Virus record (IMG/VR): IMGVR_UViG_3300020036_009452
Location: 25,428-89,427 of that record
DNA: 64,000 nt
Reading direction: 5' to 3' (one strand)
Source: a virus
Lineage: Duplodnaviria > Caudoviricetes
The position numbers and the translations under genes were made by a program. The notes under the pieces were generated by a model. The model was not told the DNA's origin and made no database searches. It saw only the letters and a list, made by a program, of their open reading frames with translations. This document shows positions 645-62,141 of this stretch, one piece after another. Each line of letters starts with the position of its first letter. The first letter of the stretch is position 1.

Positions 645-1304
645 ATGAACTTAGTACAAATTACAGGATTACCCGCAACAGGGAAAACAACTGGGGCAAG
701 ATTCTTGAACCCAGATACTACCTACTATATTGATGCCGATGGAAAAGGCTTGTCTTGAAAGGGGTGGAAAAACAGTTATAATGTAGAGAAGAAAAACTAT
801 GCAAAAACTGCTGACCCAACCACCATATATAAGGTAGTAAAGGCCGTAAGTGAGACTCGGCCAGACATCAACTGCATTGTAATTGATACTATCAATGCTA
901 TGATGACAACGGAAGAAATGGCAATCCTCGAGTCCCCTTCTAGGGATAAATGGGCGGATTTAGCCGTGGACGTATGAAATTTATATAAACTTATCAGGGA
1001 AATAAAACGCGATGATTTTGTTGTGTTTGTCTTAGCCCACTGTGAAACGTATGATGTAAATGGTATTACTCATTATCGTACGATGGTAAACGGAAAGAAA
1101 TTGTCTAAAATCAATTTGAATGCTTTTCTTTCTTACAACCTTTACACAAAAGTGGGAGCTGGTCCCGATGGGAATTTTTCATATGATCTCATTACTAAAA
1201 GTGATGGGACGAATGAAGCCCGTTCAGTGATGGACGTGTTTCCTAATAAAATTGAGAATAATTTAGAAAATGTGAGAACTGCTGTAATCGCAGCAGAAAA
1301 TTAA
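645..1304 (+). CDS. AAA_24/Sak4-like P-loop ATPase, 219 aa, with two in-frame TGA read as Trp (756, 975)
   Basis: ATG 645: MNLVQITGLPATGKTT (Walker A), YYIDADGKGLS[TGA]KGWK, CIVIDTIN (Walker B), DLAVDV[TGA]NLY, then in frame with track ORF 1023..1304 (VLAH). Confidence 0.8.
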
Positions 1305-1325
1305 CAGTTTAAAAGCACAGACAGT

Positions 1326-1919
1326 ATGATACAAGCAAAGTTATTTCTGGATAGTGGTACATCAACCGGCGGGTCTAAGATTCCAGTTGGAATTCACCAA
1401 GGCACGGTAGTGTTTAGCGGGTTGACCACAGACCAGAACTGAACTGACATTCTCTTCACCGAACCAACCACGGGAAGAACAATTCACAAAAGATTATTCG
1501 CGCCAACAGGCAATCGACCGAAGGAAGGAGAGACTGTCCTGGACGCAAAGAATAGGGAACAGAGCAATAGGTTAGGACAATTGTCCAACCTGCTACTAGC
1601 CATAGTGGGATCAGAGGTAGTAGAGACTTTTGAAGCCTCAGATTATACAGAGTTTGTGGCGAAAGCCTCGGCACTGTTGAACCAGTATAAAAACGTACCG
1701 GTTAATTTGAAGGTAGTTCCAGACTACAAGGAGAAAATGTATTCCGATCTCCCCGACTTTGGAAGTTACGTGGAGAAGCATGAGGTCGGAAGTGAAACAC
1801 GCCTAAAATTTTCGGCGAAAGAAACTGCGGCAATCTCGGAAATGGAGCAAAATATTGCTACGAAGCTGAAAAGCGGAGAAGGCGGTATGTCGTCAGAGGA
1901 TCTTCAATCTTTGGTCTAA
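1326..1919 (+). CDS. Putative single-stranded DNA-binding protein, 197 aa, one in-frame TGA (1440)
   Basis: ATG 1326 runs through DQN[TGA]TDILF into track ORF 1581..1919. Position directly after a Sak4-like ATPase and a flexible, partly acidic tail fit an SSB; the function is inferred. Confidence 0.55.
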
Positions 1920-1989
1920 CAGATTTAATGGGATTACAAACTCTCCGTAGATAAGGTAATCCTTGCCCGTGGGGGCGCTATCTTTTCAC

Positions 1990-2024
1990 AGGGGCGGTGG
2001 GCTACAATCTACCGCCCCTTTTTT
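1990..2024 (+). terminator. Intrinsic terminator
   Basis: AGGGGCGGTGG-gctacaat-CTACCGCCCCT: 11-bp stem with one G.U pair, followed by TTTTT. Confidence 0.8.
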
Positions 2025-2032
2025 ATACTCTT

Positions 2033-2302
2033 ATGGTAACACTAGATGAATATGTGGTAACCCCAGGCGCACTAGATGCTCTCCTAAATGCCGAACCCAA
2101 TATATTAAACACAATAGGCATTGCATGTTACTCAGCCACTTTCACAAATCCGAAGGGTGAGGTTAATCAAATAAAGCGAGGATACATAGCCTACAATCCT
2201 ATTTTTTACTTAGAGGTACGTAGTCAAATAGACTGTTTCCTAATCGCACACTTTAAAGCCCAAAAAGTCTTGTCTGTCACCATTCACCATGATAAAAGCT
2301 AG
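2033..2302 (+). CDS. Hypothetical protein (89 aa)
   Basis: ATG 2033 just after the terminator; the track start at 1997 lies inside the hairpin. Ends TAG overlapping the primase start. Confidence 0.5.
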   Translation: MVTLDEYVVTPGALDALLNAEPNILNTIGIACYSATFTNPKGEVNQIKRGYIAYNPIFYLEVRSQIDCFLIAHFKAQKVLSVTIHHDKS

Positions 2303-3251
2303 CGAACACACCGGAACCCTAGATAGAGCTCTAACGATCTCTGCATTTGAGTATTACTTACGTGCAGATGTCCAGATAGGTGGAAAGACTTATCGTAACC
2401 CTCTTAGGGATGACAAGAATCCCAGCTGTGCTTTTTGATTGGGGCAGAATGATTTAATCTTCATAGATTTTGCGACTGGGAAGCGCTATACGATTGTCGA
2501 GTTTGTGAAGACCAAATTTGGGCTTAACTACTCAGATGCCGTTGCGCGCATAAGAAAGGACTCGATTTACTTTAAGTCCAAAGAAATCCAGGTGTCAGAT
2601 AAAGAAGCTGTCACTTTCACATTTACAGCCCAGAATATGGCAGAAGCCATGCACTACTGGGACAAGTATAAAATCCCACAGAACATCGCAGAGAAATACG
2701 CATTCTATGTCAAAAATCTCTACAGGAACGAAGTATTTATTGGGAGAAGTAGCAAAACCAATCCAATTTTTGTATACAAGTTCCAAAGTGGGCACATGAA
2801 GATCTACCGTCCTCTGAGTCCTGATCGGATGAAGAAATGAGGCGGTAATGCAACCGCTGAGGATATTGGTGGATTATTTCAGCTACCCAGGAGAGGCAAG
2901 CTGCTGTTCATCACTTCATCTATTAAAGATATAATGGTATTAAAACAACATGGGTTTAATGCTATTTGCTTTAGCGGAGAAGGAACTGGGACAACCGCTG
3001 CAACATTTGAAGTGGTACGTCCATATGTCAAAGGGTTGCAAAAGCGATTTGAGCATGTGGTGTTGTTCCTTGATGGGGATGAAGCGGGCATAAATTTTAC
3101 CCGCATACTATCCCAGAAATTACGCGTGAAATCTATTAATCTAGATGCCAAGTGCAAAGACATCTCGGATTATCAAAAAATAAACGGTATATATCGTACC
3201 AAAAAAATCATAAAGAAAAAGCTAAGCAAATGTTTCAAGTTTCCCGTTTAA
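2289..3251 (+). CDS. DNA primase (TOPRIM), 320 aa, two in-frame TGA (2436, 2838)
   Basis: N-terminal NPLRDDKNPSCAF[TGA]LGQNDLIFIDFATG; KIYRP...KK[TGA]GGN...GGLFQLP...FITSSIKDIMVL; TOPRIM FLDGDEAG. Joins track ORFs 2439..2840 and 2934..3251 in one frame. Confidence 0.85.
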
Positions 3252-3580
3252 ATGTCATCCTTGCGTGCGTGCTCTCAGCTCTGCTAGCAATGGCCGCCCC
3301 AATCATTGTGCATAAAATAGCACAAAATTTAGAGAACACAATTAACGCATCACAGACGCGTTACAAGATTAACATAACAGAATTCGCCAGTGACAGCACA
3401 GTAATGACATTCACTACATACATGCAGACCCTGAATCGCCCCGAAGCTGAGAAAGAATTCAAACGGCAATGCTTTACAGTTTGCGACGAAGTGGAGTGCC
3501 CCGATAGCATAATTTTCACGCTTGTAGCGGAAACACCCACGACATTAAATGTCCTTATGGACTCAACCATCCGAAAGTAA
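3230..3580 (+). CDS. Hypothetical protein with an N-terminal membrane anchor (116 aa)
   Basis: ATG 3230, hydrophobic LNVILACVLSALLAMAAPIIV; TAATG coupling to ung. Confidence 0.55.
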   Translation: MFQVSRLNVILACVLSALLAMAAPIIVHKIAQNLENTINASQTRYKINITEFASDSTVMTFTTYMQTLNRPEAEKEFKRQCFTVCDEVECPDSIIFTLVAETPTTLNVLMDSTIRK

Positions 3581-4278
3581 TGAAGCATGACAATATGATT
3601 CCATTTGTGGGAGAATCCTGGTTATTACCTTTAGGAAAGGCTTTCGACTATGTGAAAACAGATGTCATCCCATACCTAAAGGAAGAAAGGGAAAGATTAG
3701 AATTAGAAAACCTAGACAATCCGTCAAAGAAAGCTAAGACTATTTATCCCTCTACACTATCCAATGTTTTCAGGGCTTTCAAAGAAACACCCTATCCAAC
3801 GGTAAGAGTAGTTATAATTGGGCAAGATCCCTATCACGATGGATCTGCCACCGGCTGCGCATTTGACAATGCAAAAACTAAGAAACCTTCCCCGTCTTTA
3901 CGAAACATTCTCAAAGAGATAGGAAAGGAATTTGGGAAATCCGCAGCCGATGACAATGTGTTGAGTTACTTGGAGCACCTTCCTTCACAGGGGGTGCTCC
4001 TCCTTAACACTGCCCTAACAGTTGAAAGCGCCAGTCGTGGGTCACATCTTGAAATCTGGCGTCCATTTACTGAGGAAGTAATAAAGGCACTAAACAAAAC
4101 TCCAGACATAGTTTGGGTTTTATGGGGAGGAAAAGCTCATAAATTCAAAGAGCTTATAAATCCAAGACACAAAATTGTTATGGGCGCACATCCTTCTCCT
4201 TTTTCATACCATCTGTTTAAGGATCAAGGGCACTTTTCTAAAATAAACGTTCATTTAAAAAATAAGATCCGATGGTAA
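3580..4278 (+). CDS. ung: Uracil-DNA glycosylase, family 1
   Basis: GQDPYH, PSLRNI, GVLLLN, LWG and HPSP motifs. Confidence 0.93.
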   Translation: MKHDNMIPFVGESWLLPLGKAFDYVKTDVIPYLKEERERLELENLDNPSKKAKTIYPSTLSNVFRAFKETPYPTVRVVIIGQDPYHDGSATGCAFDNAKTKKPSPSLRNILKEIGKEFGKSAADDNVLSYLEHLPSQGVLLLNTALTVESASRGSHLEIWRPFTEEVIKALNKTPDIVWVLWGGKAHKFKELINPRHKIVMGAHPSPFSYHLFKDQGHFSKINVHLKNKIRW

Positions 4279-5042
4279 TCACAGACGAGGCCACAAGGAA
4301 GGCCTTACCAAATCTCCAAGAACTCTTTTTTAACTTAAAGCCAAACGTGTCCGGTGTTTTTAACGACGGCCGTTTCGCCAAAGAGCATGAAAAGAGTGTT
4401 CACATTAACCCCGTAAAAGCTGTAAAGCTGTCAGAAAACAAAGGTGACCTGTTCACAGCGTTGCGCAAAGAAGGCTATGCAGTTCCCGAATTTGCACCCG
4501 CCGAACTTTTTGAAGAAAAAGGAGTGTTCGCCATTGACGTGCTGCAAGAGAAGTTTCCACTGTCTGACCCAGACCTTGAAACATTGTTCACTTGCAAGAA
4601 CAAGATGACGACTATTGAAGACTTGGCCGAGCTGTTGCAGTTGCTGGGAACTGGGATGTCACCTGGCGGTGCCTTCTTTAATTTACCCAAGGGATACCAG
4701 TCTGCAGTTGTTTCAACAATCCCAAACGCCCGAGGCACTAACCTCAACTTGGGCACCACTACCACAAACAATGGGATTCTATCCCAGACTCTTCCATCGT
4801 CCCTGGGGGCAGACCGGCGTGCCGAAGCCCTGGAATTGGCCCGTAATGTAGTCGATGAGTTGAACCTCGATTATGCCCACGTCACAATTGCTCTGTGCGA
4901 AGAGACGATGCTGGTAATCGATGTTGAAACATCACTGCGACGCCAAGATTGTGTCGCTTTGCGGTCTTACATTGACCATCTGATGAAGGCCCAAGCAAGA
5001 AAAAATAATCCACTGCAAAATGCAAGAAGAACCAAAAGGTAG
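4272..5042 (+). CDS. Divergent ATP-grasp (RimK-like) fold protein
   Basis: INPVKAVKLSENKGDLFTALRKEGYAVP resembles the ATP-grasp N-terminus; ELARNVVDELNLDYAHVTI...LVIDVET resembles the C-terminal strands, with the catalytic residues altered. Confidence 0.5.
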   Translation: MVITDEATRKALPNLQELFFNLKPNVSGVFNDGRFAKEHEKSVHINPVKAVKLSENKGDLFTALRKEGYAVPEFAPAELFEEKGVFAIDVLQEKFPLSDPDLETLFTCKNKMTTIEDLAELLQLLGTGMSPGGAFFNLPKGYQSAVVSTIPNARGTNLNLGTTTTNNGILSQTLPSSLGADRRAEALELARNVVDELNLDYAHVTIALCEETMLVIDVETSLRRQDCVALRSYIDHLMKAQARKNNPLQNARRTKR

Positions 5043-5385
5043 AAATCCACTAGAGAATTACGCCTGAGTTAAGTTACGGTCCGCTGGTATACAGTTTGAT
5101 TACGAAAGAGTAGTCGAGCTGTTACCAGCGTTTTTGTATAACGGGCTCATTATAGAAAAAGGGAAGAGAGGCTTATCTGCTAGATCCCCAAACTTTGAAA
5201 ACATCGAATATAAACCGGACTTTATGGGGGTAGACTGGGTGATAGAAACAAAAGGATTGAGACGCCCAGACTTTGATTTACGTTGAAAGCTATTTAAACA
5301 CAAAGTCAAGAGTAAGAAAATGTTATTGCTAATGCCAGGCAATATGAAACAAGTAGATGAATGTATAGAATTACTAAAATTATGA
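5020..5385 (+). CDS. T7 endonuclease I-like Holliday junction resolvase (PD-(D/E)xK); in-frame TGA at 5065 and 5284; ends at TGA 5383 or reads on to TAG 5491
   Basis: Missing from the ORF track. LENYA[TGA]VKLRSAGIQFDYE...YKPDFMGVDWVIETKG...FDLR[TGA]KLFK...QVDECIELL. Confidence 0.75.
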
Positions 5386-5389
5386 ACTA

Positions 5390-6430
5390 ATGGAAAACGA
5401 GATGCCGGATCCTATAGAGCAATACTACAGCTCGCGAAGAATTTCAAACAGCCTGCTAAAAAGCATACAAAATCCAAGAGCAGCAAAGCTTAGGCGAGAT
5501 TTCCCTGAATTATATGAGAAGAATTCAACATCTTTAAAAATAGGCTCAGCAGTTGACTGTTTACTAACTGACCCAAAAGCCTGGATTAAAAAATTTAGAG
5601 TCTTAACGGTAAATAAACCTTACGGCTTCATGGGAAGTTTTGTTGAAGGATTACCAAAAGGTATTACGAAAGAAAGCCCAAGTGAGGATTTTGAAGGGGC
5701 CTATTGGCTCTCAGGATATAAGATGTCACTGGATTGGGTTGTGAATCGTTTTTGAAATACTCCAGATGCAGTTGAGTACTATTACAGCCAGCAAGATCTT
5801 CATGGGATAACTGTTCTCTCTAGAGATGAATATGAGTCCGTATTGAAAGCAGTTGAGCTTATTAACATTTCCCCATTTACAAAACCATACTTCACTTGTG
5901 AGCATAGCTTTGAAGAGTTGATGCACCAAGTTCCTATTTACTTTGAACTAGAGGGGCAGGAATTCAAGGCGCTTCTCGATGGGATTCGTATAAATCATAA
6001 AGACGAAACTATTGAGCCATTTGATTTAAAAACTATAGGCAAGTCAGTATTCGACTTTCCACAAAGTTATGTGGACTACGGGTACTACACACAGGCTGCC
6101 TTGTATGATTATGCAATTAGGACACCAAACAGTCCTGTGTTCGCATACATAGACCAGGGGTACAGGGTTAAAGACTTCACTTTTATAGTAGTTGAAACCA
6201 AGACCTCATCTACAAATCCGGCAATAATCTACACCACTACCCAGAAAGAGCGTAATTGCGGGTTTGAGGGAGGTGTAGTTAATAATAAATACTACAAGGG
6301 CATTTATCAGCTCCTTGATGATTACTTGTGGCACGAGTCCACAGACCAATGAACCTATCCCAAAGAAGTCTTTCAAAATTTAGGTAAAATTACATTGGAC
6401 GTTTTTAAATACAATGAAACACACAATTAG
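5390..6430 (+). CDS. PD-(D/E)xK exonuclease (DUF3799/RecE-like), 346 aa, two in-frame TGA (5753, 6350)
   Basis: ISNSLLK, GSAVDCLLT, FKALLDGI..FDLKT, YYTQAALY, FIVVE, LWH..DQ[TGA]TYPKE. Joins track ORFs 5390..5755 and 5843..6352 and ends at TAG 6428. Confidence 0.75.
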
Positions 6431-6965
6431 CGCATTATTTCTCTCCCCGCTCCTTGAACTAAAGAAGGAAGCGCCGCTAAATATATACGATCCGGCCTAC
6501 TATTTAGACACTTATTCGGGGGACGTACACAGGGAGGAATACCGCAACTGAACAGCAGGAGATTTCGTTCTTCTGGAATATAACAGTAATCTGCCAGAGA
6601 GCTTGATTGAATACTTTCAAAAGCGCTCGACTTTTGTAGAGATGTACGACCCGCAGAAGGGGAAACGTATCTTTGTATTCAGACTACCGCAGGAGGTTAA
6701 AAAGTCTTACACTGCCAAAGTTTTGGCGGGCAAGTACTCAGAAGCAGACAGACAGGTCGTGGACAAGTATTTTCCAAACGATCCTAGCCACCCACTTTAT
6801 GGAAACCGGTTGGTGTTCGATAAGGGTGAACAATGGCGAAACTATTGGGACGCGCGAGGCGTCGTAATACCGGAAAACGCAGAGGTCTATTCAAAGCCAC
6901 AGGCAAAAAATGAACAGTATGGATATGTTAAACCAAATTCAGGGGACGATGGCGAACTTGCTTAA
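6414..6965 (+). CDS. Hypothetical protein (183 aa), one in-frame TGA (6549)
   Basis: ATG 6414 overlaps the exonuclease end and runs through YRN[TGA]TAG(D) into track ORF 6603..6965. Confidence 0.65.
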
Positions 6966-7380
6966 CGCTGGAGTTGAAAAGTTAAAGTTCTTAAATCGAA
7001 TACTGGATCCTGAGCGCATTGCGCAAATTAGCCAAACCCACACTCGAAGGGAAGAGGCTTTGCTAGCCTTAGGTTTAGAGGAAAAAGACCTCATAGTTAT
7101 TGAGGAAGAAAAAGCGGGGAAACGCGAATTTATTCGCCGGGCAATTGCTCGTTCTAACCCCTCATTCGGAAGATTCCTAACCGAGGCTTATGTACATTAC
7201 GAGACAACAAAAAACCCAAAAGCGCAATCGCGCATTAGCAAGGTTGACAGCCTTGAAAAGCTACAACAAGAATTGAACACATGAAATCCCGAAACGTTAA
7301 AAGCGGAGGACCTATTGTCCGCCTGTGTTCAACTCTACTTGCTGCATCGGAAACTGCCCAAAACTAAGCCAGAACCTTAA
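6910..7380 (+). CDS. Hypothetical helical protein; ends at TGA 7282 or, if read through, at TAA 7378
   Basis: Track ORF 6910..7284 plus a protein-like continuation WNPETLKAEDLLSACVQLYLLHRKLPKTKPEP. Confidence 0.5.
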
Positions 7381-7544: not shown

Positions 7545-8516
7545 ATGAATCTTTTTAAAGCTTTCCTATTACTCCTTGCAGGATTCTTCACAGTCGTCAC
7601 GTTTCAACGATGCGCCACTGATCCACAACTCTCTGGCCCAGCTGCCTACCTCCCATACTTGGGGCTTTTGGCAATCCTGGGAGTGGTTGTTTACTTCCGA
7701 AAGCGTTTGGCAAGGTGGTTAAAAGCCACACCAATCCTATTAGTGCTGTTCACGACCAGCTGTGACTTTGTAGCTTCCGACAAGATCGGGGTTTGGGTTA
7801 AGAACTATGGAAAGACAGTCGATGATTACCAGCTAATACTGGGGAAATTCCCTGTTGACTGGTCTTACTCGACTTGGACCCTTGAATACCCCGGTACTAA
7901 CTTTCCAGTCCAAATTGACCCGATACAAATGTACTGTAAGGATGGGGTTGGCGTGTTTGTCGACCCAAGCGTTCTTTGCGCTCTTATCAAGAGTGACGAG
8001 GCGTGCCGAAAGTACGCCTCTCAATTTACTGCTTATCGCGATGGTCCCGCATTTCAAGAAGCGATTGCGCAGACAATCTTCAAAGAGACCATTGCGGCCT
8101 GCCGCCAAGTTGTGCAAAACACAGTGTCTGATTCATTATTGGGAAACCGAGGAAGATACTACACAATGATGGAGGTTGACTTAGGGCAGAAATTAGTTTC
8201 GGTCTATGGCGTATGGTTGAAGCAATTTTCTGTGGAAATCAGTGTCGACCCAACTCTGCAGCAGGCTATCAATGGGAGATTGAATGAACAAGAGAAGACG
8301 AAAAAGACCCTAGCCTCGGTTGAAAACGAAAAGGCGGAGATTAAGTTGATGGAACTGAGAAAAGTGAAAATTGATCTTGAAAGTCAAGCCTATTCACCAC
8401 AATTCCTGCGGAAGTTGGAACTTGACTATTCGTACAATGCCTGGATGGCTCTTGCCAACTCACCCAACAAGGTCTTTGTGGGCGGCACCCCAACGAAATT
8501 TCTAATTAATCCTTAG
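7545..8516 (+). CDS. SPFH/Band-7 (prohibitin-like) membrane protein with a lipobox-like signal
   Basis: N-terminal hydrophobic segments, LLVLFTTSC, IGVWVKNYG, CKDGVGVFVDPSV, and C-terminal coiled coil LQQAINGRLNEQEK..KAEI..KVFV. Confidence 0.8.
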   Translation: MNLFKAFLLLLAGFFTVVTFQRCATDPQLSGPAAYLPYLGLLAILGVVVYFRKRLARWLKATPILLVLFTTSCDFVASDKIGVWVKNYGKTVDDYQLILGKFPVDWSYSTWTLEYPGTNFPVQIDPIQMYCKDGVGVFVDPSVLCALIKSDEACRKYASQFTAYRDGPAFQEAIAQTIFKETIAACRQVVQNTVSDSLLGNRGRYYTMMEVDLGQKLVSVYGVWLKQFSVEISVDPTLQQAINGRLNEQEKTKKTLASVENEKAEIKLMELRKVKIDLESQAYSPQFLRKLELDYSYNAWMALANSPNKVFVGGTPTKFLINP

Positions 8517-8539
8517 TCAATCATCTGTTAGCAGGTAAA

Positions 8540-8571
8540 TCGGTGGCTCTAGTAAAGTCTGGGGCCACCGA
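8540..8571 (+). terminator. Intergenic RNA hairpin (terminator or processing site)
   Basis: TCGGTGGCTCTAG-taaagt-CTGGGGCCACCGA: 13-bp stem with 2 G.U pairs and a weak T-tract. Confidence 0.6.
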
Positions 8572-8583
8572 ACATTTTAATTT

Positions 8584-8889
8584 ATGGAAAACTCATCTAC
8601 AATTTTAAACTGGAACATAGCTGCCCCTGCTAAGTCAGTAAGTGAGCAGCTACAAAAACAAGTAGACTACGCTAAAGGCCTTTTCATGGCCTGGAGAAAA
8701 CGTAACCCAGAAGCGTCAAACATTTTGGTTTTCAAACATGTTCTACAAGGATACCTCGTTCGAGTCCTTCTTAGTGAAGGGCAGTTTGAGGTGGCCTTTG
8801 ACAGGTTGGATGCCTTTTGGGAAGAATACACCATGGATTACATCTCGATTTGGGAAAAAGAATATCAATCTAAGCATGAACTTATTTAG
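8584..8889 (+). CDS. Hypothetical protein (101 aa)
   Basis: ATG after an AT-rich leader; ends TAG; 4 Trp, all TGG. Confidence 0.6.
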   Translation: MENSSTILNWNIAAPAKSVSEQLQKQVDYAKGLFMAWRKRNPEASNILVFKHVLQGYLVRVLLSEGQFEVAFDRLDAFWEEYTMDYISIWEKEYQSKHELI

Positions 8890-9271: not shown

Positions 9272-9287
9272 CCCCCCTAAGATTTGA
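9096..9287 (+). CDS. Small two-TM membrane protein (63 aa), ending in TGA
   Basis: MKSRLIYFVIFNLAILGGMFYMLYGG..SIYFILVLILIVEFYFMKELRYF; TGA 9285 sits 11 nt before a terminator. Confidence 0.55.
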   Translation: MKSRLIYFVIFNLAILGGMFYMLYGGMNPSIYFILVLILIVEFYFMKELRYFIRYGRFSPPKI

Positions 9288-9298
9288 AGTGTGATAGG

Positions 9299-9337: not shown

Positions 9338-9355
9338 TCATCTAAAACTCAAACA

Positions 9356-52625: not shown

Positions 52626-52637
52626 TATTTATTTTGG

Positions 52638-53363: not shown

Positions 53364-54364
53364 TATTGTTTAGCTTTTATTTGGTTTTGTAACTCCTCGA
53401 ATTCAGTGCTTTTCTTGGGGTCCATAAGGAAGTCCACAGCTTCTGAAAAACGGTCGCCGATAACAAGGGTAGCTCCGCTTTCACGAATCCAGGTCCAAGT
53501 ATCTTGTTTTGCAAATATGATTCTTAGAGCCTGCGCAAGTCTTAGCATATAAGTGGTCTCAAAACGTACTTTTCCTTCGGCGGTTTTCAGCAGCTCAAAG
53601 TAATGATTGTACTTTTCTAGATTCTTATTTGTGGAGGCAGCAGCCTCAATATAATCATATAATAGATTATAAGTAGTCTCAGCTGAGAGTTTAGATGAAG
53701 GGGAACCAATTTCAAGTAAAACCAACATCTTGGCCCTGAGTGTTTCAGTTAAATCTTTCGATTCCAATGAAGCCAGTGCTTTTGCACGAGCTTTCACACG
53801 ACTGTATTTCAAGGCGTCTGATTCATTCTCAAGCGCAATGTAGTGTGTAGCTTTTGGCCACTTATGTTCACGCCATTCTTTTTCAGAATTAGCTACTTTA
53901 GAAGAAGCCAGTAGAACATAATATCCAATTTCATCATCCATGATACTTAAATCAAAGGCGGTAGTGCCGTCTAGAAGTGGCCAAGAGTGGTTGTAATAAT
54001 AACCAAGTTCTCGTCCATCCCCTTTATAGTTAGCTTCAACTAAATGATTATTGAAGAAACCAGCGGGCTTATTCCACTTTTTCTCTAAGTATGCTTGTAA
54101 TGTTACTGGATTACCATTAGCATCTAGCTCAGGTTGTCCTGTAGCTGGATCAGTCTTATAATTATAAGATATGTAGTTAGCAAGCCCGCCTACTTTTGCA
54201 GAAGGTAGAGCTACTAAAATGTCCTGAGCTCGGCCTACTTTCGTTTTTTTCAGTTTTAATCCTGAACTAGCCGATACCCAATCGGAGATTCCTGTTGCGG
54301 TTGCTCTAGGAATTGAGGTTACAAATACTATTTTTGACATTATCCTTTTATTTTCATTAAACAA
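53363..54364 (-). CDS. Conserved crAss-like protein downstream of the major capsid gene
   Basis: FDLSIMDDEIGYYVL and KATHYIALENE; conserved syntenic position. Confidence 0.6.
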   Translation of the reverse strand: MFNENKRIMSKIVFVTSIPRATATGISDWVSASSGLKLKKTKVGRAQDILVALPSAKVGGLANYISYNYKTDPATGQPELDANGNPVTLQAYLEKKWNKPAGFFNNHLVEANYKGDGRELGYYYNHSWPLLDGTTAFDLSIMDDEIGYYVLLASSKVANSEKEWREHKWPKATHYIALENESDALKYSRVKARAKALASLESKDLTETLRAKMLVLLEIGSPSSKLSAETTYNLLYDYIEAAASTNKNLEKYNHYFELLKTAEGKVRFETTYMLRLAQALRIIFAKQDTWTWIRESGATLVIGDRFSEAVDFLMDPKKSTEFEELQNQIKAKQ

Positions 54365-54389
54365 AAAGTCTAGTATCCGGTGGATACTA
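54363..54389 (-). terminator. Hairpin/terminator after the capsid-holin unit
   Basis: TAGTATCC-acc-GGATACTA perfect 8-bp stem, then GACTTTTT. Confidence 0.55.
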
Positions 54390-54391
54390 TA

Positions 54392-54637
54392 TTAGAATTT
54401 CTTTATTATATATACTTTTGTCAGTGCTAGTGTTGCGTTTAAAAATACCAATGGTATACTAACAGGAGTGAGTAACGAGGCGAGTTGCGCGGCATTTAAA
54501 CCAGCAATTAAACCTCTAATCGTTATTCTGTCTGCGTGTGTTAGTGCGGAAGAGTTTGAAACAATAAATTTCTCTTGCAACAAGTAGACTGAACTAATCG
54601 TGCTTAGAAGGACTGCTATTGCGTTTAAAATCTCCAT
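54392..54637 (-). CDS. Small membrane protein (possible holin partner)
   Basis: 81 aa, hydrophobic N- and C-terminal segments, basic end; overlaps the holin end. Confidence 0.5.
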   Translation of the reverse strand: MEILNAIAVLLSTISSVYLLQEKFIVSNSSALTHADRITIRGLIAGLNAAQLASLLTPVSIPLVFLNATLALTKVYIIKKF

Positions 54638-54929
54638 TTACCGTAAAGTATTTATTCAACAAGCCTTCGGTATTAGCAATTAAGAAGTTTATAACTTTCA
54701 TCGATACTAACCCAAGGACAAACCCAATGCCTGATGAGAACTTACTATCCATTGATAGATAGTGCTCAGCAAAAGGATGAAGATAGGCGGCTGTGGAGGC
54801 ACCACCAACAATAAGCAACAAAGCACGCATAAACGATAACTTTGTTTCATATGTTAGTGAAACTATGCCTCCTATCAACCCTGCTACTAGAACGGACAAC
54901 TTTATACCAAGTTGCGTTTCTAGATTCAT
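54594..54929 (-). CDS. Putative holin (about three TM segments)
   Basis: LVAGLIGGIVSL...LLLIVGGASTAAYL...GIGFVLGLVSMKVI, then a charged tail. Confidence 0.6.
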   Translation of the reverse strand: MNLETQLGIKLSVLVAGLIGGIVSLTYETKLSFMRALLLIVGGASTAAYLHPFAEHYLSMDSKFSSGIGFVLGLVSMKVINFLIANTEGLLNKYFTVNGDFKRNSSPSKHD

Positions 54930-54931
54930 AA

Positions 54932-56428
54932 CTACGCTTCGGTATCAGAGATAAGTTCACCGCAAGCGGTGACGTCGCGAATAACAGCACCTAAGGTACC
55001 TTCAATATGCACGCTATAACCAGCTTTAGCTGTAACAGCAAAACCTTTACCAGTGATTGGACCCATTGGGGTTACAGATCCTGGAACATAGAAGTAACGG
55101 AAAGTGTCTTTCACTTTCAACAGTTCAAGGTTTTTACCCATACCACGAGCAGTTTCTACACCACGGCCTTCGATATTAAGGAAGGTCATACGAGCAGAGT
55201 CGATTGGCATGTTAGGATAAAGTGGGTGCATGCGCTTGCAGTAACGAAGATCATCGTACATTGGGTTGTGCACCAAACGTACTTTGATACCAAGAGGACC
55301 AGTGTACTCAACGAATTGAGCGCCGTAAGCCAAACCTGGAGTAGAAGATCCTTCGTTAGAAGCAGAACGTACATAGTGAGAATCAACGGTAAGGAACCCG
55401 TTAGCTACAGCTTGGAGTGCGTTGTGGAACAACAGCTGACCAAGTTGACCAGTCATAAGGGTGATACCCCTTTGAGATTCGTCTGTACGACCGAAGAAGA
55501 TGTTCAAGAGGAAGTCTTGGAGAAGGTTAACAGTCAAAGGACCGTTTACATACTGTATCCAAGAATCTTTGAGTTGTTGGCGAATACCAGGGCCGGTTTT
55601 CTGCCAGTAGCCATCAGGACCTTTGAGTGTGGATTTTTCACCATACACCAGAGCCCACTCCATGGACTTATAAAGCTCGTCAACCATTACAGCTTCTGCA
55701 TAAGGCAGGAACTTGGAAACAGAGCTAGTCTTTCCATTAGAATCAGTAGCCAAGAATTCAAAGCCAAGACGGCCTTGTTGACGCCAAGCTTTGTCTGTAA
55801 CTTCAATTTTCTGTGCGAATGCACCGAGTTGAGATTGCAGTTCAAAGATGCTTGGGTACTGTTGGGTACTGAAGTCACCATTCATTTCAGACGGTACAGC
55901 AGAACTTACTTTATCGAAAGAACGACCAGAAGCTAGGTAGCGTGGATCGAGGAATTTAGTAGGATCATCAGTCAAAAGGCGCAGCGTATAGATAGTACCA
56001 GTTGAGTCTGTGATTTTATCAGTAACTTGGATGTTGAAGTCGTTATCTTCGCTGATGAGGACGTCTGGGTACTGGTAGTAGTCAAGATCCAATTTAACAC
56101 GGAAGGGCTGTTGGTTAAGACCTGGGGTTGTGTTGGATGGTTCGACGTTTTCTACAACACGGGCAGATTTTTGTTCTGCACCTTGCATACGCCAGCGTAC
56201 GATTTCATCTTCAATTTCAAGACCGCCATTTGTTCCCATACCAGTGAGGTTAAGGAATGGTTTTACTTTGAAGAAGTCCGAGCCAGAAGAGAAGATCTTC
56301 ATCAAGGCTCCAGGAAGATAATAGGGTTTACCCGTCTCATAAGCTTGGGCCAGGTAGTTGGAATCAATGAAGGAACCTCCAAATGAATCCCAGTGTTTAA
56401 TGATTAAGGAAGATTGAGGATTTGCCAT
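54932..56428 (-). CDS. Major capsid protein (crAss-like HK97 fold)
   Basis: 498 aa; WRMQG, GEKST..GPG..QQ, TGQLG.LLF, YGAQF.EY..P.G..V.LVHNPMYDD; followed by the usual crAss synteny. Confidence 0.88.
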   Translation of the reverse strand: MANPQSSLIIKHWDSFGGSFIDSNYLAQAYETGKPYYLPGALMKIFSSGSDFFKVKPFLNLTGMGTNGGLEIEDEIVRWRMQGAEQKSARVVENVEPSNTTPGLNQQPFRVKLDLDYYQYPDVLISEDNDFNIQVTDKITDSTGTIYTLRLLTDDPTKFLDPRYLASGRSFDKVSSAVPSEMNGDFSTQQYPSIFELQSQLGAFAQKIEVTDKAWRQQGRLGFEFLATDSNGKTSSVSKFLPYAEAVMVDELYKSMEWALVYGEKSTLKGPDGYWQKTGPGIRQQLKDSWIQYVNGPLTVNLLQDFLLNIFFGRTDESQRGITLMTGQLGQLLFHNALQAVANGFLTVDSHYVRSASNEGSSTPGLAYGAQFVEYTGPLGIKVRLVHNPMYDDLRYCKRMHPLYPNMPIDSARMTFLNIEGRGVETARGMGKNLELLKVKDTFRYFYVPGSVTPMGPITGKGFAVTAKAGYSVHIEGTLGAVIRDVTACGELISDTEA

Positions 56429-56430
56429 AA

Positions 56431-57459
56431 TTATAAGTTCCGCAGTATAGTATCGTCATTAACGACTTGCGGTGGTTTGTTCGAGGCTTTTTGTGCCTGT
56501 TTTGGATCAAGAATCCTGGAAACAGCTTCTTGAAATTGTTGGGTTGCTTTGGTTTTTACTTTGCGCTCTATGCGGTCTAGAGAAAAGCCTGTATTTGGAT
56601 CGTATTCCAAAAGCAAATCTGCTAGTTGTGCTTGGTGTTCTGGGTTTGTCAGTATAGAGCTAATAGCCTGATTAAATCCAGTTGAAGTCCCTTGAGGGGT
56701 ATTTATTGGTTCAAAGAAGAAAGCCTTAACCTTGTTACGTCTTTGCGGATGTACATACTGAGATGTATCAATAGCATTGTGAAGGGCTTGAGTTTTCTCT
56801 TCCATAGCGAGCCTATCGGTCCGCTCTTTTTCTTTTAAACGATTAATTTCATTTGCCTGCTCAGTCTGACGTAGTTGTTGCAGTTCCTGATAAGACATAT
56901 TAGCTTCTTCGGCTAAGTCTTCGGGACTTTCAGCTAAACGTTCTACTATCTTATTGATACGCTCATCAGAGTAATTAGACGTTCTTTTAAGTGCTAGAAA
57001 GATAGCTGCTTTCTGCCCATCTTCTGTAGTCAAATCTACATCCATTAATGGGTCAACAGCATGTCGTTCTAGGAATCCCCGAACATCTTGCCCGCCATTT
57101 TGAACATACTCCAGAACAGACTTAAAATCCTCTGGTAACATGTTTCCCAGCTCCTCAGCAGCTTTCTCAGCCTGCCTTTGCTTAGTGTAGTTGAAGATAG
57201 TTTCTAACTCAGTTGCATCCCCTGAAAACTCTAAGTCTTCTGGAATCTCAATAAGATTGTTAGTTTTTAGAAATTCAACGTAAGCTTGGATCTGGGGATC
57301 ACCACTAGGAGTGGAGTCGTCAGAAGCATCATCATTGTTCTGCGTAGTTACTATAGGGGCATCCCCTTCCTCAGTACTATCTAACTGTTGGTCAGAGTCT
57401 GTTTGGGGGTCGGATGTTTCTTGAAACATTGCCGCAAGGAAATCAATTTCATTTTCCAT
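56431..57459 (-). CDS. Scaffolding-like protein (acidic, between portal and MCP)
   Basis: Acidic N-terminus, LPEDFKSVLEYVQNGG, helical C-terminus. The true start may be the second ATG (57429). Confidence 0.65.
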   Translation of the reverse strand: MENEIDFLAAMFQETSDPQTDSDQQLDSTEEGDAPIVTTQNNDDASDDSTPSGDPQIQAYVEFLKTNNLIEIPEDLEFSGDATELETIFNYTKQRQAEKAAEELGNMLPEDFKSVLEYVQNGGQDVRGFLERHAVDPLMDVDLTTEDGQKAAIFLALKRTSNYSDERINKIVERLAESPEDLAEEANMSYQELQQLRQTEQANEINRLKEKERTDRLAMEEKTQALHNAIDTSQYVHPQRRNKVKAFFFEPINTPQGTSTGFNQAISSILTNPEHQAQLADLLLEYDPNTGFSLDRIERKVKTKATQQFQEAVSRILDPKQAQKASNKPPQVVNDDTILRNL

Positions 57460-57460
57460 A

Positions 57461-57492
57461 CAAAGATACTAAATTTTTATTTTTTTGTCAAG
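57461..57492 (-). promoter_or_regulatory. Bacteroidetes sigma-A promoter (-33/-7) driving scaffold-MCP
   Basis: Minus strand: CTTG-20 nt-TATCTTTG, matching TTTG-N19-21-TAnnTTTG, in the intergenic gap. Confidence 0.75.
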
Positions 57493-57526
57493 TTTTTTGA
57501 GAACTTTCGCATCCAACTCCATAGCC

Positions 57527-59935
57527 CTACGTACTTTTTGAGGGTTTTCTAGCCTTGATTTTGAGCTCTTTTTCTTTTAAATCAGATTCTTTTTCAAAGC
57601 GTTTTTCTTCCAAATCCAGCTTCCGTTCTTCCAAATCTTTATCGGATAAGAACTTTTGAATCTCTAGGGGATCGGGAATTCCATTGTTATCTACGTCAAT
57701 ATCTTGTTGGAATTTGAACACTTCTATCTGAGCAATACGCTCCTTGTGCTCATGGTCAAGACGTTGTTTCAACAGCTCAAATTCCTGTTGAGCAGCTTGT
57801 GCTTCTTTTGCAGCTTGGATTTCACCTTCTTGTGCTTGATTGTTACGTTGGAAGGTTTCTTCTTCGGATTGCTTAATAGCATGCTTTAATTCAGAAACAG
57901 AGTTGCTCTCATAAAGAGTAATCAGATCTGAGAAGGTGGCCCGATTAGTGTTAAGAAGCCCGTCAGAGATTCCTTTAAGGGCTTGGAACATTTCGTGTTC
58001 TTTACCAGAATCTGTAACAAATATACCTAGATCGCAATCTAATAATTCATCTGCTTCAACTTCTAGGGTAGCTAGGGACAGATCATCTAGAACATACTGT
58101 TTAACGATGTTTCTTCCACGCCAAGCGTACTTTGTAGCATACACTATGGAGGACAAAATTTTCTCCCATAACTTTGCGTGACTTTGGAAATAGATCTCAG
58201 TAATCAAGGCAGACATCTGAATGTTAGACTGGGCGTTTGACACAGCCTCAGTTGGTGCTGTTTGGCCTTCGCGCTGTCTAGAAACACCTGCTACCTCAGA
58301 AATTTGTGCATCTATAGACTCTAGAAGTCCGACATAATTCATAATATTTTGCATATTAGACATGTCGGCTACACCCGTTACTTTACCACGTTGGCTCTGG
58401 CCTGGGGCATCACCGTTGGCTAGTGAGTTGTATAAATCTATGTTCATACGCTTCAAATAATAAAGCGTTTTCTCTAGACCAATCTTTGGGTCCACCATAG
58501 ATATATCAAATGGGAATACTTTCCCTTGATCCTGGGCAATAAGTTCTTTGAGCTTGTGAGCTACAATCAAGTATAAATACTGGAAGGGCTTCATGCGATC
58601 CATCAAACTGACAGATTCGGCATTCATGGCATTGTAAATCAAGCCATGATAACCTAAGGACACTTTAAATGGATTATCTACAGGACGATATTGAAGTTCT
58701 TTAGGTCCGATCATAGTATAAATATCATTACCGATGCGTGTACCAGTCCAGACTTCTGGGATATAATCCCAATAGAGCTTATAAATAATACCATCGAGCT
58801 CCCATATATAATAGGTTGTCTTAGCTCCAAACTGTTTTACTATATCTTCTTTGGTATAGAGAGTTGGGATTTCAAAGTCCTCCGATACCATTTTCTTCTC
58901 AACTTCACCAAATTCATTAGTGAACTCAAGAAAACCAACTTTGCGTTGTGATACCCATTCTACATGGGAAACGAGAATATCTTCTTGATTTTTAGACCCA
59001 TAGCTTCCGTGCTGGCTGTTTGAAATCAAATCCATCATTGGATCAGCTTCTGTATGCCCATACTTAGCAGTACCCGACATTGAAAAATCCCGCAGTGCAT
59101 AAGCTGTATTAGAGTTATCTAACCGGTCTTTTTGTTTCTCTGTTAAGTATTTACCATATTGATCTAATACTTCTGCGACAGTCATGTATACGCTTTGTCC
59201 GGCGTACAATGAATCTTGCACCCATTTGGTTTCACCACTCTTATGACAGAAGAAATTAAGGGAGTTTACAACAGACACAGAGGTCTCTCCATTATCCATA
59301 CCAACGTACACTACCTCTTCGCCAGAGATAAGAGCGTGTTTAAAAGCATCAACCTTTAGGTCTCTTAAATCCAGTGCTCTTTGTTGATACTGGAGGATGG
59401 CTTGAGCTAGTAATTCGCGCCGTTCCCTGTAATCATAGCGCATGTACCTATTGACGTCTTTTGGATCAATAGCTGGGAACATTTCTTCTTGCTGGGAATT
59501 ACCCATTGCTGATGCCTTTGCCTGCTGTATTACTTGTTCAACATAGTTTTTAAACATGTTGTCCCTGGCCGCAAGCTTAGAGCGAACACCTTCACTATTG
59601 ACTAAAACAGCTCTAAAGTTGAATGGGCGTTTAGAAAGATCAGAAAGAAGGATTTGGATTTTATTATATGCCTTATTATAAGGCTGGATTTCATCTTTTA
59701 ATTGCCCCACATCTAATCCTAGGGGATTACATGCGCGTTCAAAGTCAGCTTGATTTAACTGGTTATTGTATAGTTGATAATTCGATAACTTTCTTTGATA
59801 GGGTGTGGCATTATTAATAACCCCATTGTCCATAGGGGAGTGAGCAAGGATCGAATCCATAACCTTCTTAGCCCACGCAAAATCATCTTTTGCTTTATTG
59901 TTGTATGATAGTCGTTGTTTGGGAAAATTGAACAT
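57527..59935 (-). CDS. Portal protein
   Basis: 802 aa; FPKQRLS...NYQLYNNQL; DAFKHALISGEEVVYV; VEWVS; EVWTGTRIG; MDRMKPFQYLY; GVSRQREGQ. Confidence 0.88.
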   Translation of the reverse strand: MFNFPKQRLSYNNKAKDDFAWAKKVMDSILAHSPMDNGVINNATPYQRKLSNYQLYNNQLNQADFERACNPLGLDVGQLKDEIQPYNKAYNKIQILLSDLSKRPFNFRAVLVNSEGVRSKLAARDNMFKNYVEQVIQQAKASAMGNSQQEEMFPAIDPKDVNRYMRYDYRERRELLAQAILQYQQRALDLRDLKVDAFKHALISGEEVVYVGMDNGETSVSVVNSLNFFCHKSGETKWVQDSLYAGQSVYMTVAEVLDQYGKYLTEKQKDRLDNSNTAYALRDFSMSGTAKYGHTEADPMMDLISNSQHGSYGSKNQEDILVSHVEWVSQRKVGFLEFTNEFGEVEKKMVSEDFEIPTLYTKEDIVKQFGAKTTYYIWELDGIIYKLYWDYIPEVWTGTRIGNDIYTMIGPKELQYRPVDNPFKVSLGYHGLIYNAMNAESVSLMDRMKPFQYLYLIVAHKLKELIAQDQGKVFPFDISMVDPKIGLEKTLYYLKRMNIDLYNSLANGDAPGQSQRGKVTGVADMSNMQNIMNYVGLLESIDAQISEVAGVSRQREGQTAPTEAVSNAQSNIQMSALITEIYFQSHAKLWEKILSSIVYATKYAWRGRNIVKQYVLDDLSLATLEVEADELLDCDLGIFVTDSGKEHEMFQALKGISDGLLNTNRATFSDLITLYESNSVSELKHAIKQSEEETFQRNNQAQEGEIQAAKEAQAAQQEFELLKQRLDHEHKERIAQIEVFKFQQDIDVDNNGIPDPLEIQKFLSDKDLEERKLDLEEKRFEKESDLKEKELKIKARKPSKST

Positions 59936-62141
59936 TAAATAATCTGTTATTATTTATTATGAGCCTATTGAGGTCCTTATCAAGTTGGGATATCTCAGCT
60001 TGATTATACAACTTTCGTTGCTCCATATTGGATAATTCTTCAAGACCTAGTATACAGCCAATCAAGGAAGATACTCGGTCGAAGTTTCCATCTAAGTTAT
60101 AAGCAATTAGTTCTTGGAGTAGTGCTGGGTCAGGTATAAGGTCCAAATTGCGTTTCCCATCTCCTCGATCTTCTAACAAGAAAGATCGAACATACTGTAG
60201 TGCTTCCCATTTTATCTTATCGTTTGATAGGGGGTAGCCATAGATAACCTGTGGGCCACTATCATAGGAAGCTTTTTTATTAAAAATAGTTACAGGTTGA
60301 CGAGCTAGGAGATCTAATCGACGAATCTTCTCAAAGTAATCCTTTACGTTGCCTACGTTATTCTCAAAATATATCTTTGCGTTACCATAAAACAAGGATA
60401 GTTTGTATAGTAATTCATTCACATGATTCTTTCCTAAATAGGGGCGACCAATATAGTTAGCCACTATTTCTGAATACCCAACAGATGAGGGATGTTTGTT
60501 TGTCTTTATAACGTATATGGATGCCAAGGAAGCCCCTGTTTGCCCGTCGTCTTTATAAGGGTCACAACCTATAATATAGGCCCCCTCGGGGATAACCTCC
60601 TGTATAACCTTTGGAAATTCATATATAACTACTGCCCCTTCTAATTCATCGCCTTCATATGGAAATCGATTTATGGCCTGGAGCTTTTCGCTGAGTTCAT
60701 AATTCACACCATTATATATTTTAGCAGATGGATCAAAGTAAAGTGTTACCTTCTTCTCCAAATAATCACTCATTTTGTGAGTTTGGATTTCGGATAATCT
60801 CCTACGAAGTTCCGCTGTGGGGAATATATTAGCTGTCTTGGTAAGAAACATCTCAGAAGGAACAATAGGTCGATACTGCATTTCCTTATTCAATGCTTCT
60901 GATCCGCCTGAGTCCCCTGCTTTTTTCTTTCTTACATTTAATAATGCCTGCTTTGCTGCCGCAGCATCAGTTACACCATCATCATCCTTATACTCGTTGA
61001 GTACTTCATAGGCGGGTAAGAAGTAACCTATATCACCCCTAAATTCCCATGTGTCTTCAAAGGGAAGAATACCATATTTATGCGGCTCATAAAACATCTC
61101 AGCAGCATCAAGGGTACCTTTTGACATGTCACCACCAGTACCCAGCATCATAAGCATGCCTGTTTTTACAAGACCATTACGAAGGTTATCCACTGTGTTA
61201 GTGTATACATCCTTTAAGCCCGCGAACATACCAACCTCTTCTAAAACTAAGAGGAGTGGACGTGTTCCTTGTGCAGCAAATGAGTTAGACGAGAAGGATT
61301 TATGCTTTATAGATGATTTAGAACCGGCTACGAGCCAAGCTCCATTTTCACGCCTTTTGTATTCAGCAATGATCTCCCTATTAACATCTCAAGAACCTCG
61401 ATACCGTTTTAAAAACGGAGAAGGATAAGTTCTATCATGGAGAGTTTGTTTACCTGGCAACCAGTCAAAAGCGTCTCGAACCTTCTTTAAAAGGTCAGCC
61501 GAACGGTCAGACTTCTCAGCACCAACCAATATCTCTGCTGGTTTAGGAAATTTTCTAGTAAACTCATTGTACACTGTAGATCCATCCATCAGGAAGTTAT
61601 GCGCTATAAGTCCTGAAACTGAATAGGATTTACCTGATTCACGAGAACCAAGTAGCATAAAGTTCTGTAGGGGGTTTTCAAACAGCGGGGCGCCTAGTGG
61701 GGCATCATATGTTTGAAAGAGCGCTTTTCTAGGGGAGATGTATTCCTTTCGCTGTCCTGTAATTGGAGATATTGTGTTTGGGTGTCAGCGCATTAATATA
61801 TCATCCGTAACATTTTCATCTAGGAGTACGTTATTGGATGAGTAATAATGGTCATCTTGGAAACCAGAAAAGCCCCTGGCTTCGGTGTAGTAGTTAAAAA
61901 ATTTATACTCTACATCACGTAACCAGGGGCGATCGAAGGTTTTCAGGGCTGAACCTCTTTTGTTTAATCGTATTGTATGGAAGTTTACATAATAGTAAAG
62001 GGCCGGTGGAATAAAAGTTCCACTAGCCCACATACCTTCTATACACCTACGGCGTTGTTCTCTCCAAAAAATTCTGTAATCCACCGAGAGAGGGTGGAAA
62101 TTTGGTATTTCTTTTACTATTACATCTGTAGCTTTAAGCAT
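59895..62141 (-). CDS. terL: Terminase large subunit, 748 aa, two in-frame TGA (61785, 61389)
   Basis: FWREQRRRCIEG; Walker A LGSRESGKSY; Walker B LVLEEVGMF; GTGGD; nuclease IGCDPY, ENN, NFDRVSS. Three track ORFs join in one frame through ILMR[TGA]HPN and YRGS[TGA]DVN. Confidence 0.9.

Follow-up and report, generated by a model that had tools for sequence, protein, structure and literature searches.

We analyzed a 64,000-nucleotide stretch of DNA (hereafter, the window) from a virus genome (Duplodnaviria; Caudoviricetes), IMG/VR record IMGVR_UViG_3300020036_009452, in which TGA is read as tryptophan (Trp) in a block of replication genes and as a stop codon in neighboring accessory genes. The window comprises bases 25,428–89,427 of a linear 89,427-bp record with a G + C content of 42% and a completeness of 89% (CheckV); positions given here are those of the window, while genome positions count along the whole record (labeled L040). 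On the plus strand, profile matches identify a family-A DNA polymerase (PolA), two helicases, a Sak4-like ATPase, a primase, a resolvase, and an exonuclease. The minus strand has PHROG and Pfam matches to a crAss-type large terminase (TerL), a portal protein, the major capsid protein (MCP), a crAss cargo-protein domain, and a GroEL-like chaperonin. Membership in the Crassvirales is indicated by the placement of TerL, portal, MCP, and cargo protein in one co-directional arm with giant genes next to them, and by matches to PHROGs 6681, 6547, and 11589 and to Pfam crAss_CARG1, with Crass_capsid matched on an identical 102-kb record described below. The closest cultured phage is Cellulophaga phage phi14:2 (TerL identity, 34.5%), and the virus is a crAss-like phage of ∼102 kb, an environmental relative of phi14:2 that lies outside the gut groups.

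A TerL search of IMG/VR recovered 39 related loci at 44–84% identity, and locus searches with PolA, the exonuclease, or a 1407-aa protein of the minus arm as query returned almost no matches. Four larger relatives (G001–G004) were taken as full genomes, of which G001 is 95% complete and G003 is complete. An exact look-up of the GroEL protein led to a 102,154-bp record of the Joint Genome Institute (JGI); the locus on that record (L105) is 100% identical to the last 11,867 bases of our record over L105:9739–21605, and reaches 9.7 kb further. The last 39 bases of our record had no exact match among the metagenome contigs scanned.

The original prediction listed 18 in-frame TGA codons between positions 645 and 62,141 and read them as Trp. 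All 18 are indeed in-frame TGA codons of the genes that surround them, and TGA is, as claimed, the only codon that interrupts genes: joining any gene never requires reading through TAG or TAA, or a frameshift. Two further sense TGAs, at 5383 and 7282, bring the totals to 20 in the window and 30 in the record, and matches to family profiles span TGAs. Open reading frames (ORFs) cover 92.6% of the 89.4-kb record when TGA is treated as sense and 85.8% when it is not, compared with 86.8% when TAG or TAA is freed instead. Not all TGAs in this span are sense, since that at 10295–10297 is a stop within an ATGA overlap. Positions 54957 and 54945 were also considered as sense TGAs and rejected, both being upstream of a conserved Met start at 54929.

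Sense TGAs are most frequent in the replication genes of the plus strand. The earlier count of 10 TGA vs. about 17 TGG codons here becomes 12 vs. at least 15 on a recount for 645–7380, and the recoding of core replication genes is borne out across the record, with three TGAs each in PolA, an SF2-type helicase, and the resolvase, two each in the Sak4-like ATPase, the primase, and the exonuclease, and one in a DnaB-like helicase. The Sak4-like ATPase (PF13479; 645–1304) matches PHROG 2872 over its whole length (E = 1.5e-38), and has TGAs at 756 and 975. An unnamed protein follows (1326–1919), with no family match in PHROG or Pfam; its coding score is 0.17 before the TGA at 1440 and 0.22 after it, and relatives have W, Y, and S at this site. 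The Toprim-type DNA primase (2289–3251) matches PHROG 12622 over residues 12–277 (E = 2.9e-20), and relatives have TGA at both of its sites, 2436 and 2838. The Holliday-junction resolvase-like gene (5020–5493), with a PHROG 190 match that spans 5284, carries TGAs at 5065 (TGA, A, or Y in relatives), 5284 (W in all three relatives), and 5383 (TGA in relatives), and its tail beyond 5383 is conserved in G002. The exonuclease gene (5390–6430; PHROG 412, exonuclease VIII, with PF12684 in homologs) has TGAs at 5753 and 6350. Two small genes (6414–6965 and 6910–7380) have TGAs at 6549, which is TGA in two relatives, and at 7282, across which the alignment to the G002 ortholog continues. The resolvase and exonuclease genes overlap by ∼100 nt (5390–5493) in different frames, and this overlap, which is conserved in G002, holds a sense TGA. 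Orthologs of the replication genes in G001–G003 have one to four TGAs each, and the virion genes of these genomes mostly have none. Upstream of the window, a proposed M15 endolysin at genome 16657–17268 was not borne out, as PHROGs and Pfam give only weak coiled-coil matches.

The identity of the inserted residue was assessed by aligning three proteins (Sak4, primase, and exonuclease) with up to 120 database homologs each. The column opposite TGA 756 in Sak4 is W in 110 of 110 ungapped homologs, and those opposite the exonuclease sites are W in 94/111 (5753) and 109/115 (6350). In the primase, site 2838 corresponds to W in 35 of 50 homologs (Y 9, F 6). Two columns are aromatic with W in the minority: 975 in Sak4 (Y 88, W 26, F 6) and 2436 in the primase (F 12, Y 11, W 4). 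Of the Trp motifs named in the original prediction, support is found for LSWKGW in Sak4, the primase KW at 2838, QWTYP at 6350, and, with W in three of three relatives, LRWKLFK at 5284; the fifth, YYDKWDL at 35582, has no homolog, and the evidence at that site is its coding potential. Of the two TerL sites, 61389 (residue 251) is well supported, being TGG in 27 relatives and TGA in 12 (F in 2), and 61785 falls in a variable column (Y 11, W 1).

Comparison at the DNA level gives the same answer. Among 157 aligned codons of the relatives, our TGA sites face W 58 times, TGA 31, Y 19, and G once, and our TGG sites face W 970 times and TGA 80 times. TGA and TGG are thus swapped at equivalent sites in ∼39 related phages, and TGA is kept at some sites, such as the DnaB-like site and 6549, between genomes that are only 46–61% identical. 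From the homolog columns and this interchange, TGA encodes Trp across the clade, and not Gly, Cys, selenocysteine (Sec), or an error. Many database homologs of the Sak4, primase, and exonuclease proteins are truncated (134–160, 257–258, and 194–275 aa, respectively), and these probably represent calls under the standard code (code 11) that were cut at TGA in related phages.

Sense TGAs are distributed in blocks. In counts from curated gene lists, the plus strand begins with an accessory block at genome 0.3–16.3 kb (22 genes; 0 sense TGA to 61 TGG; 9 genes ending in TGA), continues with the replication block at genome 16.3–32.8 kb (up to 7380 in the window; 20 genes; 22 to 42; none ending in TGA), and returns to a second accessory block at 7545–11351 (5 genes; 0 to 25; one ending in TGA). 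The minus arm has 26 genes with 8 sense TGA to 134 TGG, all of the former in TerL and four genes at 31672–41673; in agreement with the earlier claim for the late arm, all 26 end in TAA (20) or TAG (6). The replication block differs in sense TGA use from the accessory blocks taken together (0/86; Fisher p = 6e-10) and from the minus arm (p = 3e-7), and TGA stops occur in 10 of 27 accessory genes vs. 0 of 26 minus-arm genes (p = 7e-4). Code-11, code-4 (TGA as Trp), and code-11 blocks therefore lie consecutively on the plus strand, and the code changes near genome 16.3 and 32.9 kb, both inside one strand and neither at a strand switch. The genome is a mosaic, in which the replication block is strictly code 4, the two accessory blocks are strictly code 11, and the virion arm is code-neutral. 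PolA, both helicases, Sak4, the primase, the resolvase, and the exonuclease carry one to three TGAs each and so are not readable under the standard code. A layout in which virion and lysis genes are recoded is likewise not found: the virion block has no TGA to 58 TGG, and the glucosaminidase gene stops at TGA.

Several features identify true TGA stops in the accessory blocks. The stop at 10295–10297 overlaps the ATG at 10294; the frame downstream of it has a coding score of −0.09, and is outscored by the overlapping frame of 10294–10800. Such ATGA overlaps with the next start occur at four of the ten TGA stops, including this one (10294–10297). The TGA at genome 6801, in an endolysin-like glucosaminidase gene, sits directly after a complete Glucosaminidase Pfam domain and aligns with the TAA stop of the G002 ortholog. 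At genome 9428, TGA aligns with the TAA stops of both the G001 and G002 orthologs, and the in-frame ORF that follows corresponds to a separate gene in G002. More generally, the frame after the accessory TGA stops scores as non-coding, while that after the replication-block TGAs scores as coding. At genome 8262–10493, two genes in the same frame are parted only by a TGA stop and then TTG, so that suppression would yield a 743-aa fusion.

The minus arm (all genes on the minus strand) combines long TGA-free tracts with a few recoded genes. Three giant genes (1509, 1151, and 4087 aa; 11426–31667) have 0 TGA vs. 46 TGG and no PHROG match, with only an AAA domain found by Pfam; from the gene order of crAss-like phages, they may encode the virion RNA polymerase or cargo proteins. 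The next gene, for a 625-aa protein (31672–33549), has a TGA at 32881, where relatives have W, M, V, and I, and the coding score is 0.34 before and 0.38 after it. A 933-aa protein with PG_binding_1 and crAss cargo-protein-1 domains (Pfam; 33536–36337) has TGAs at 36056, 36032, and 35582. No homolog covers its first 274 residues, and the evidence for this read-through is the unbroken frame together with coding scores of 0.35–0.56; its codons 103–154, which lie between TGAs, score 0.40 in frame and −0.8 and −1.5 out of frame, and these 52 codons include no ATG, GTG, or TTG. A 1407-aa virion structural protein (36337–40560; PHROG 15100, E = 2e-93) has a TGA at 36535, which is W in three relatives, and a 143-aa protein (41242–41673) has one at 41383 (W in two relatives and R in one), which is spanned by the alignment to the G004 ortholog. 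The virion block proper (41645–59935), with the MCP (54932–56428), the portal (57527–59935), and 13 other genes, is free of TGA and uses TAA and TAG stops. TerL (59895–62141; PHROG 6681, E = 3.5e-101, residues 5–728) contains the sense TGAs 61785 and 61389. Directly upstream of it is the last long gene in the record, a full-length GroEL-like chaperonin gene with no TGA (62134–63738; PHROG 5725, E = 7e-132), which is conserved in all four larger relatives; a 77-aa ORF follows at 63722–63955. At the opposite end of the record, a full-length pistol ribozyme (L040:88–148; Rfam RF02679, 63.3 bits) precedes the first plus-strand genes. Across ∼39 relatives, TGA makes up 20% of the Trp codons in TerL, 6% in the portal, and 0/107 in the MCP, as compared with 34% in the replication enzymes of our phage, and this gradient with protein abundance means that a timing gate is not the sole reading of the pattern.

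A suppressor tRNA with a UCA anticodon had been suggested as a check on the recoding. None is present in the 89-kb record, and one is present on the 100% identical 102-kb record, at L105:6985–7083 (plus strand of that locus, the strand of TerL), 2.7 kb past the end of the window and beside a transfer-messenger RNA (tmRNA) gene. In relatives, the tRNA(UCA) gene is syntenic, 2.4–3.5 kb upstream of TerL. Homology of G004 to our record persists to the last bases of the record, which thus stops just short of the place of this gene. The tRNA is Trp-like, with A1-U72, discriminator G73, an encoded CCA end, and the anticodon loop CUUCAAA. It scores 50.9 bits (E = 5e-10) against R1, a covariance model built from the tRNA(UCA) genes of other phages. 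ARAGORN misses it, and Rfam gives a sub-threshold tRNA-Sec match (26.7 bits), likely because of its T loop, UGCAAGU, and a D loop that lacks GG. R1 also detects a comparable gene, likewise missed by ARAGORN, in the complete G003 genome (G003:51868–51966), which had seemed to have no tRNA(UCA). No release factor or tryptophanyl-tRNA synthetase (TrpRS) gene was found in the five genomes searched.

The L105 extension carries 24 small genes, one of them with a Lar-type restriction-alleviation domain; as called under code 11, they lack internal TGAs, and a single one stops at TGA. The phage tmRNA lies at L105:6072–6333 (plus strand; Rfam, 76 bits), ∼650 nt upstream of the suppressor tRNA, with another at G002:48478–48758. 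Its tag peptide is long and ends in VYA, and the tmRNA may serve in the rescue of ribosomes that run past host stop codons. Two weak tRNA- or tmRNA-like elements (R1, 25.7 and 14.7 bits; tmRNA, 22.5 bits; tRNA, 29 bits) occur at L105:8477–8583 and L105:264–359, in gene-free gaps upstream of GroEL. Other aberrant tRNA-like genes stand at the head of the plus-strand accessory block, at L040:2433–2509, L040:2315–2383 (weaker), and G002:38241–38331, with good acceptor, D, and T arms and an oversized anticodon region that, in the G002 copy, forms a 10-bp stem tipped by GUUCAA. The first of these (Rfam tRNA, 53.6 bits; ARAGORN, ‘Gly(acc)’) was rejected as a suppressor: its anticodon region is 22 nt long, with no U33 and no UCA.

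The suppressor tRNA has an unusual architecture. In our phage, G003, G004/L001, L003/L005, and L031, the tRNA(UCA) is 94–100 nt long and has a second hairpin between the anticodon and T arms, with a 5–6-bp stem and a 7–9-nt loop that presents UCCAA, as in the loop of tRNA-Trp(CCA). Two-armed genes are found, e.g., at L006:5520–5617, L003:216–309, L031:3368–3467, and in the loci L074–L091. Length and the placement of the hairpin resemble those of class II tRNAs (tRNA-Sec, Ser, and Leu), in keeping with the ARAGORN label tRNA-SeC. These genes differ from class II tRNAs in having a 7-bp acceptor stem, a 5-bp T stem, and A1-U72 with G73, as in bacterial tRNA-Trp, and in an extra hairpin that is itself like an anticodon arm. 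A scan of IMG/VR with an exact pattern that requires both loops and the T loop found 18 loci, with ∼1 estimated by chance, on contigs of 7.6–230 kb; all 18 were called tRNA(tca) by ARAGORN. The same scan of 596 Gb of bacterial genomes gave 13 matches, 9 of them non-tRNA chance matches and 4 tRNAs on short contigs of metagenome-assembled genomes. The two-armed tRNA(UCA) is thus present in many unrelated phage contigs, and several of the other loci sit in strongly TGA-recoded DNA. The search pattern itself imposes GUCCAAA on the scan set, and the unbiased sample is the five lineages reached via TerL and GroEL. In a 17-sequence alignment, the extra hairpin shows compensatory changes in all five pairs; the tRNA(UCA) family as a whole shows them in all five helices, with an invariant CUUCAAA loop.

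The nucleotides C34, C35, and A36 are identity elements for Trp charging. Given this, the extra arm could preserve recognition by TrpRS or permit two folds. We tentatively suggest, as a possibility rather than an expectation, that this is an undescribed kind of suppressor, in which the true anticodon arm would read UGA while the duplicated CCA arm would keep charging by the host TrpRS, or in which alternative folds would serve these roles; by this means the phage would gate its replication and packaging enzymes, and not its virion genes, behind UGA, with its first genes still relying on release factor 2 (RF2). Full-text literature searches returned nothing relevant on a tRNA with a second anticodon-like arm, which is not proof that it is undescribed.

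Features of the phage genes point to the host. A Shine-Dalgarno (SD)-like 4-mer at −20 to −4 was found upstream of 0 of 61 genes, vs. 14% of random windows, and these upstream regions are 42% A. The absence of SD motifs is a habit of Bacteroidota, and fits the hosts of the nearest cultured relatives, Cellulophaga and Flavobacterium. Together with the TGA stops, this suggests that the host is probably a standard-code member of the Bacteroidota. The base after homology-supported sense TGAs in the five genomes is a purine in 79 of 91 cases (87%), compared with 70% following TGG codons (p = 5e-4) and 63% when all codons are counted (p = 6e-7); a purine after a stop codon is the classical context that favors nonsense suppression. 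The +4 base does not tell TGA stops from sense TGAs, as purines mostly follow both. This context, in combination with true TGA stops, argues for competition between the suppressor and RF2 in a standard-code host rather than for a native code-4 host.

We consider that the observations are probably best explained, overall, by a mosaic-code phage whose own tRNA(UCA) competes with host RF2. The Trp-type tRNA, which we infer to be expressed and charged, would decode UGA as Trp in the replication block, TerL, and the four cargo-region genes. RF2 would remain active, with accessory genes ending at UGA, and decoding would be a contest between suppressor and release factor. The abundant virion genes, which shun TGA both as sense and as stop, would be read identically under either code. 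Full-length replication and packaging enzymes would be possible only once the suppressor is present, and the loss of yield from incomplete suppression would be tolerated only in low-copy proteins. Timing, dosage, or both may lie behind the pattern. Translation of accessory genes before the suppressor builds up, and of replication and packaging enzymes after, is consistent with the data, as is a dosage effect in which only low-copy proteins can afford incomplete suppression, a limit that would produce the gradient from MCP to portal to TerL. The two are not exclusive and both fit: dosage alone leaves the accessory TGA stops unexplained, and timing alone leaves the gradient within the virion arm.

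Several observations weigh against this explanation. The absence of sense TGA from the accessory blocks is partly circular, since these genes were called with TGA as a stop, and the independent support for TGA stops is limited to the two ortholog stops and the four ATGA overlaps. Our tRNA(UCA) falls below the Rfam gathering cut-offs, and with its non-canonical D and T loops could be defective. G001, at 95% completeness, has in-frame TGAs and no clear tRNA(UCA) was found there. The tRNA gene is on the strand of the virion arm, and early expression is not evident. Finally, the code of the host is deduced from features of the phage only.

The alternatives differ in their probability. That the TGA distribution reflects dosage only, with neutral drift from TGG to TGA wherever yield is not limiting and no temporal gating, is a possibility with some claim, if a lesser one; it accounts for the rise in TGA share from MCP through portal and TerL to the replication enzymes. 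It does not account for the low-copy accessory genes, whose 86 Trp codons include no sense TGA and which retain TGA stops, or for the persistence of TGA at the DnaB-like site and 6549 in genomes only 46–61% identical. UGA could also be read without a working dedicated tRNA, with the phage inhibiting RF2 or in some other way enabling the host tRNA-Trp(CCA) to read UGA, the odd tRNA-like genes serving, e.g., as decoys. The aberrant D and T loops of our tRNA(UCA), its failure with standard detectors, and the further aberrant tRNA-like genes in our record (genome 2315–2383 and 2433–2509) and in G002 would agree with this. We regard it as unlikely given the compensatory changes in all five tRNA(UCA) helices around an invariant CUUCAAA loop and the synteny of the gene across relatives; near-cognate reading, on established knowledge, would also be too weak for genes with three TGAs.

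A host that itself uses code 4, with UGA as Trp and no RF2, would require no code switch, and uneven TGA use would then be codon bias. The clade-wide interchange of TGA and TGG, the in-frame TGAs of G001 where no tRNA(UCA) was recognized, and the lack of TGA stops in the virion arm are compatible with such a host. Ten accessory genes nevertheless end in TGA, two of these being aligned with ortholog TAA stops and four forming ATGA overlaps; the phage and most of its relatives encode their own tRNA(UCA); SD motifs are absent upstream of genes, in the manner of Bacteroidota; and the giant and virion genes have 0 TGA among 104 Trp codons. We know of no code-4 lineage in the Bacteroidota, and find this alternative very unlikely. 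Lastly, that the TGAs are assembly or sequencing errors or mark pseudogenes, or that TGA encodes Gly, Cys, or Sec, has next to no probability. Apart from the fact that stops occur under code 11, nothing favors errors or pseudogenes, while independent assemblies have TGA or TGG at equivalent sites and a separate record matches ours at 100% identity over 11.9 kb; W or other aromatic residues occupy the columns opposite TGA, and G occurs at a single one of 157 aligned codons, which speaks against the other amino acids.

In earlier work on crAss-like phages, TGA-to-Trp and TAG-to-Gln reassignments were found mostly in late genes, with TGAs also in the PolB of a Zeta group (Yutin et al., 2021; PMC7886860). 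Structural and lysis genes have been described as recoded and crAss-like replication genes as standard-code, although replication genes differ in code from clade to clade, and those of Lak phages are for the most part recoded (Borges et al., 2021; 10.1101/2021.08.26.457843). In multi-code genomes annotated with Mgcod, it is the early replication genes that form the code-neutral block, and the code changes with the strand switch (Pfennig et al., 2022; 10.1101/2022.06.29.495998). The suggestion that our phage has the opposite polarity to these late-gene layouts stands, with the qualifications that its code is a mosaic, that recoding tracks protein abundance, and that recoded replication genes are already known from Lak phages, from the PolB of a Zeta group, and from the Lera helicase. 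Like the TGA-recoded crAss-like phages (Yutin et al., 2021; Lera, PMC12386605), it has a partly recoded Crassvirales-type genome, a TerL TGA aligned to Trp, and a suppressor tRNA with UCA; theirs is mostly a recoding of late and structural genes, whereas here the MCP, the portal, and their 13 virion neighbors have none and the replication block has most. With the lysis timer (Borges et al., 2021) it shares an inferred standard-code host, standard-compatible earliest or accessory genes, and a suppressor for a later set; in contrast, a genuine TGA stop terminates the glucosaminidase gene, and the recoded set is that of the replication genes. Single-code blocks beside a ‘dual-coded’ block are likewise found in the Mgcod genomes (Pfennig et al., 2022), in which the dual-coded genes are those of early replication and transcription and the code changes at the strand switch; here, the dual-coded part is the virion arm and there are two changes within one strand. 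Organisms with NCBI table 4 (Mycoplasmatota and some insect endosymbionts) also read UGA as Trp via tRNA-Trp(UCA), but they lack RF2 and never stop at TGA, as ten accessory genes do here. The reversed layout is a variant of known recoding, with replication genes in place of virion genes.

Stop-codon recoding in phages is currently seen as a brake on late or lysis genes, and the layout in our phage and its relatives is the opposite; recoding could thus act on another subset of genes, or mainly mirror the loss of yield that is tolerable for each protein. For annotation, code-11 gene callers fragment the replication genes of such phages, while a blanket table-4 call wrongly extends or fuses at least ten genes. 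A suppressor that evades detectors bears on the reported lack of suppressor tRNAs in most TGA-recoded phages, and the two-armed tRNA(UCA) offers a testable idea for how a suppressor may retain its amino-acid identity.

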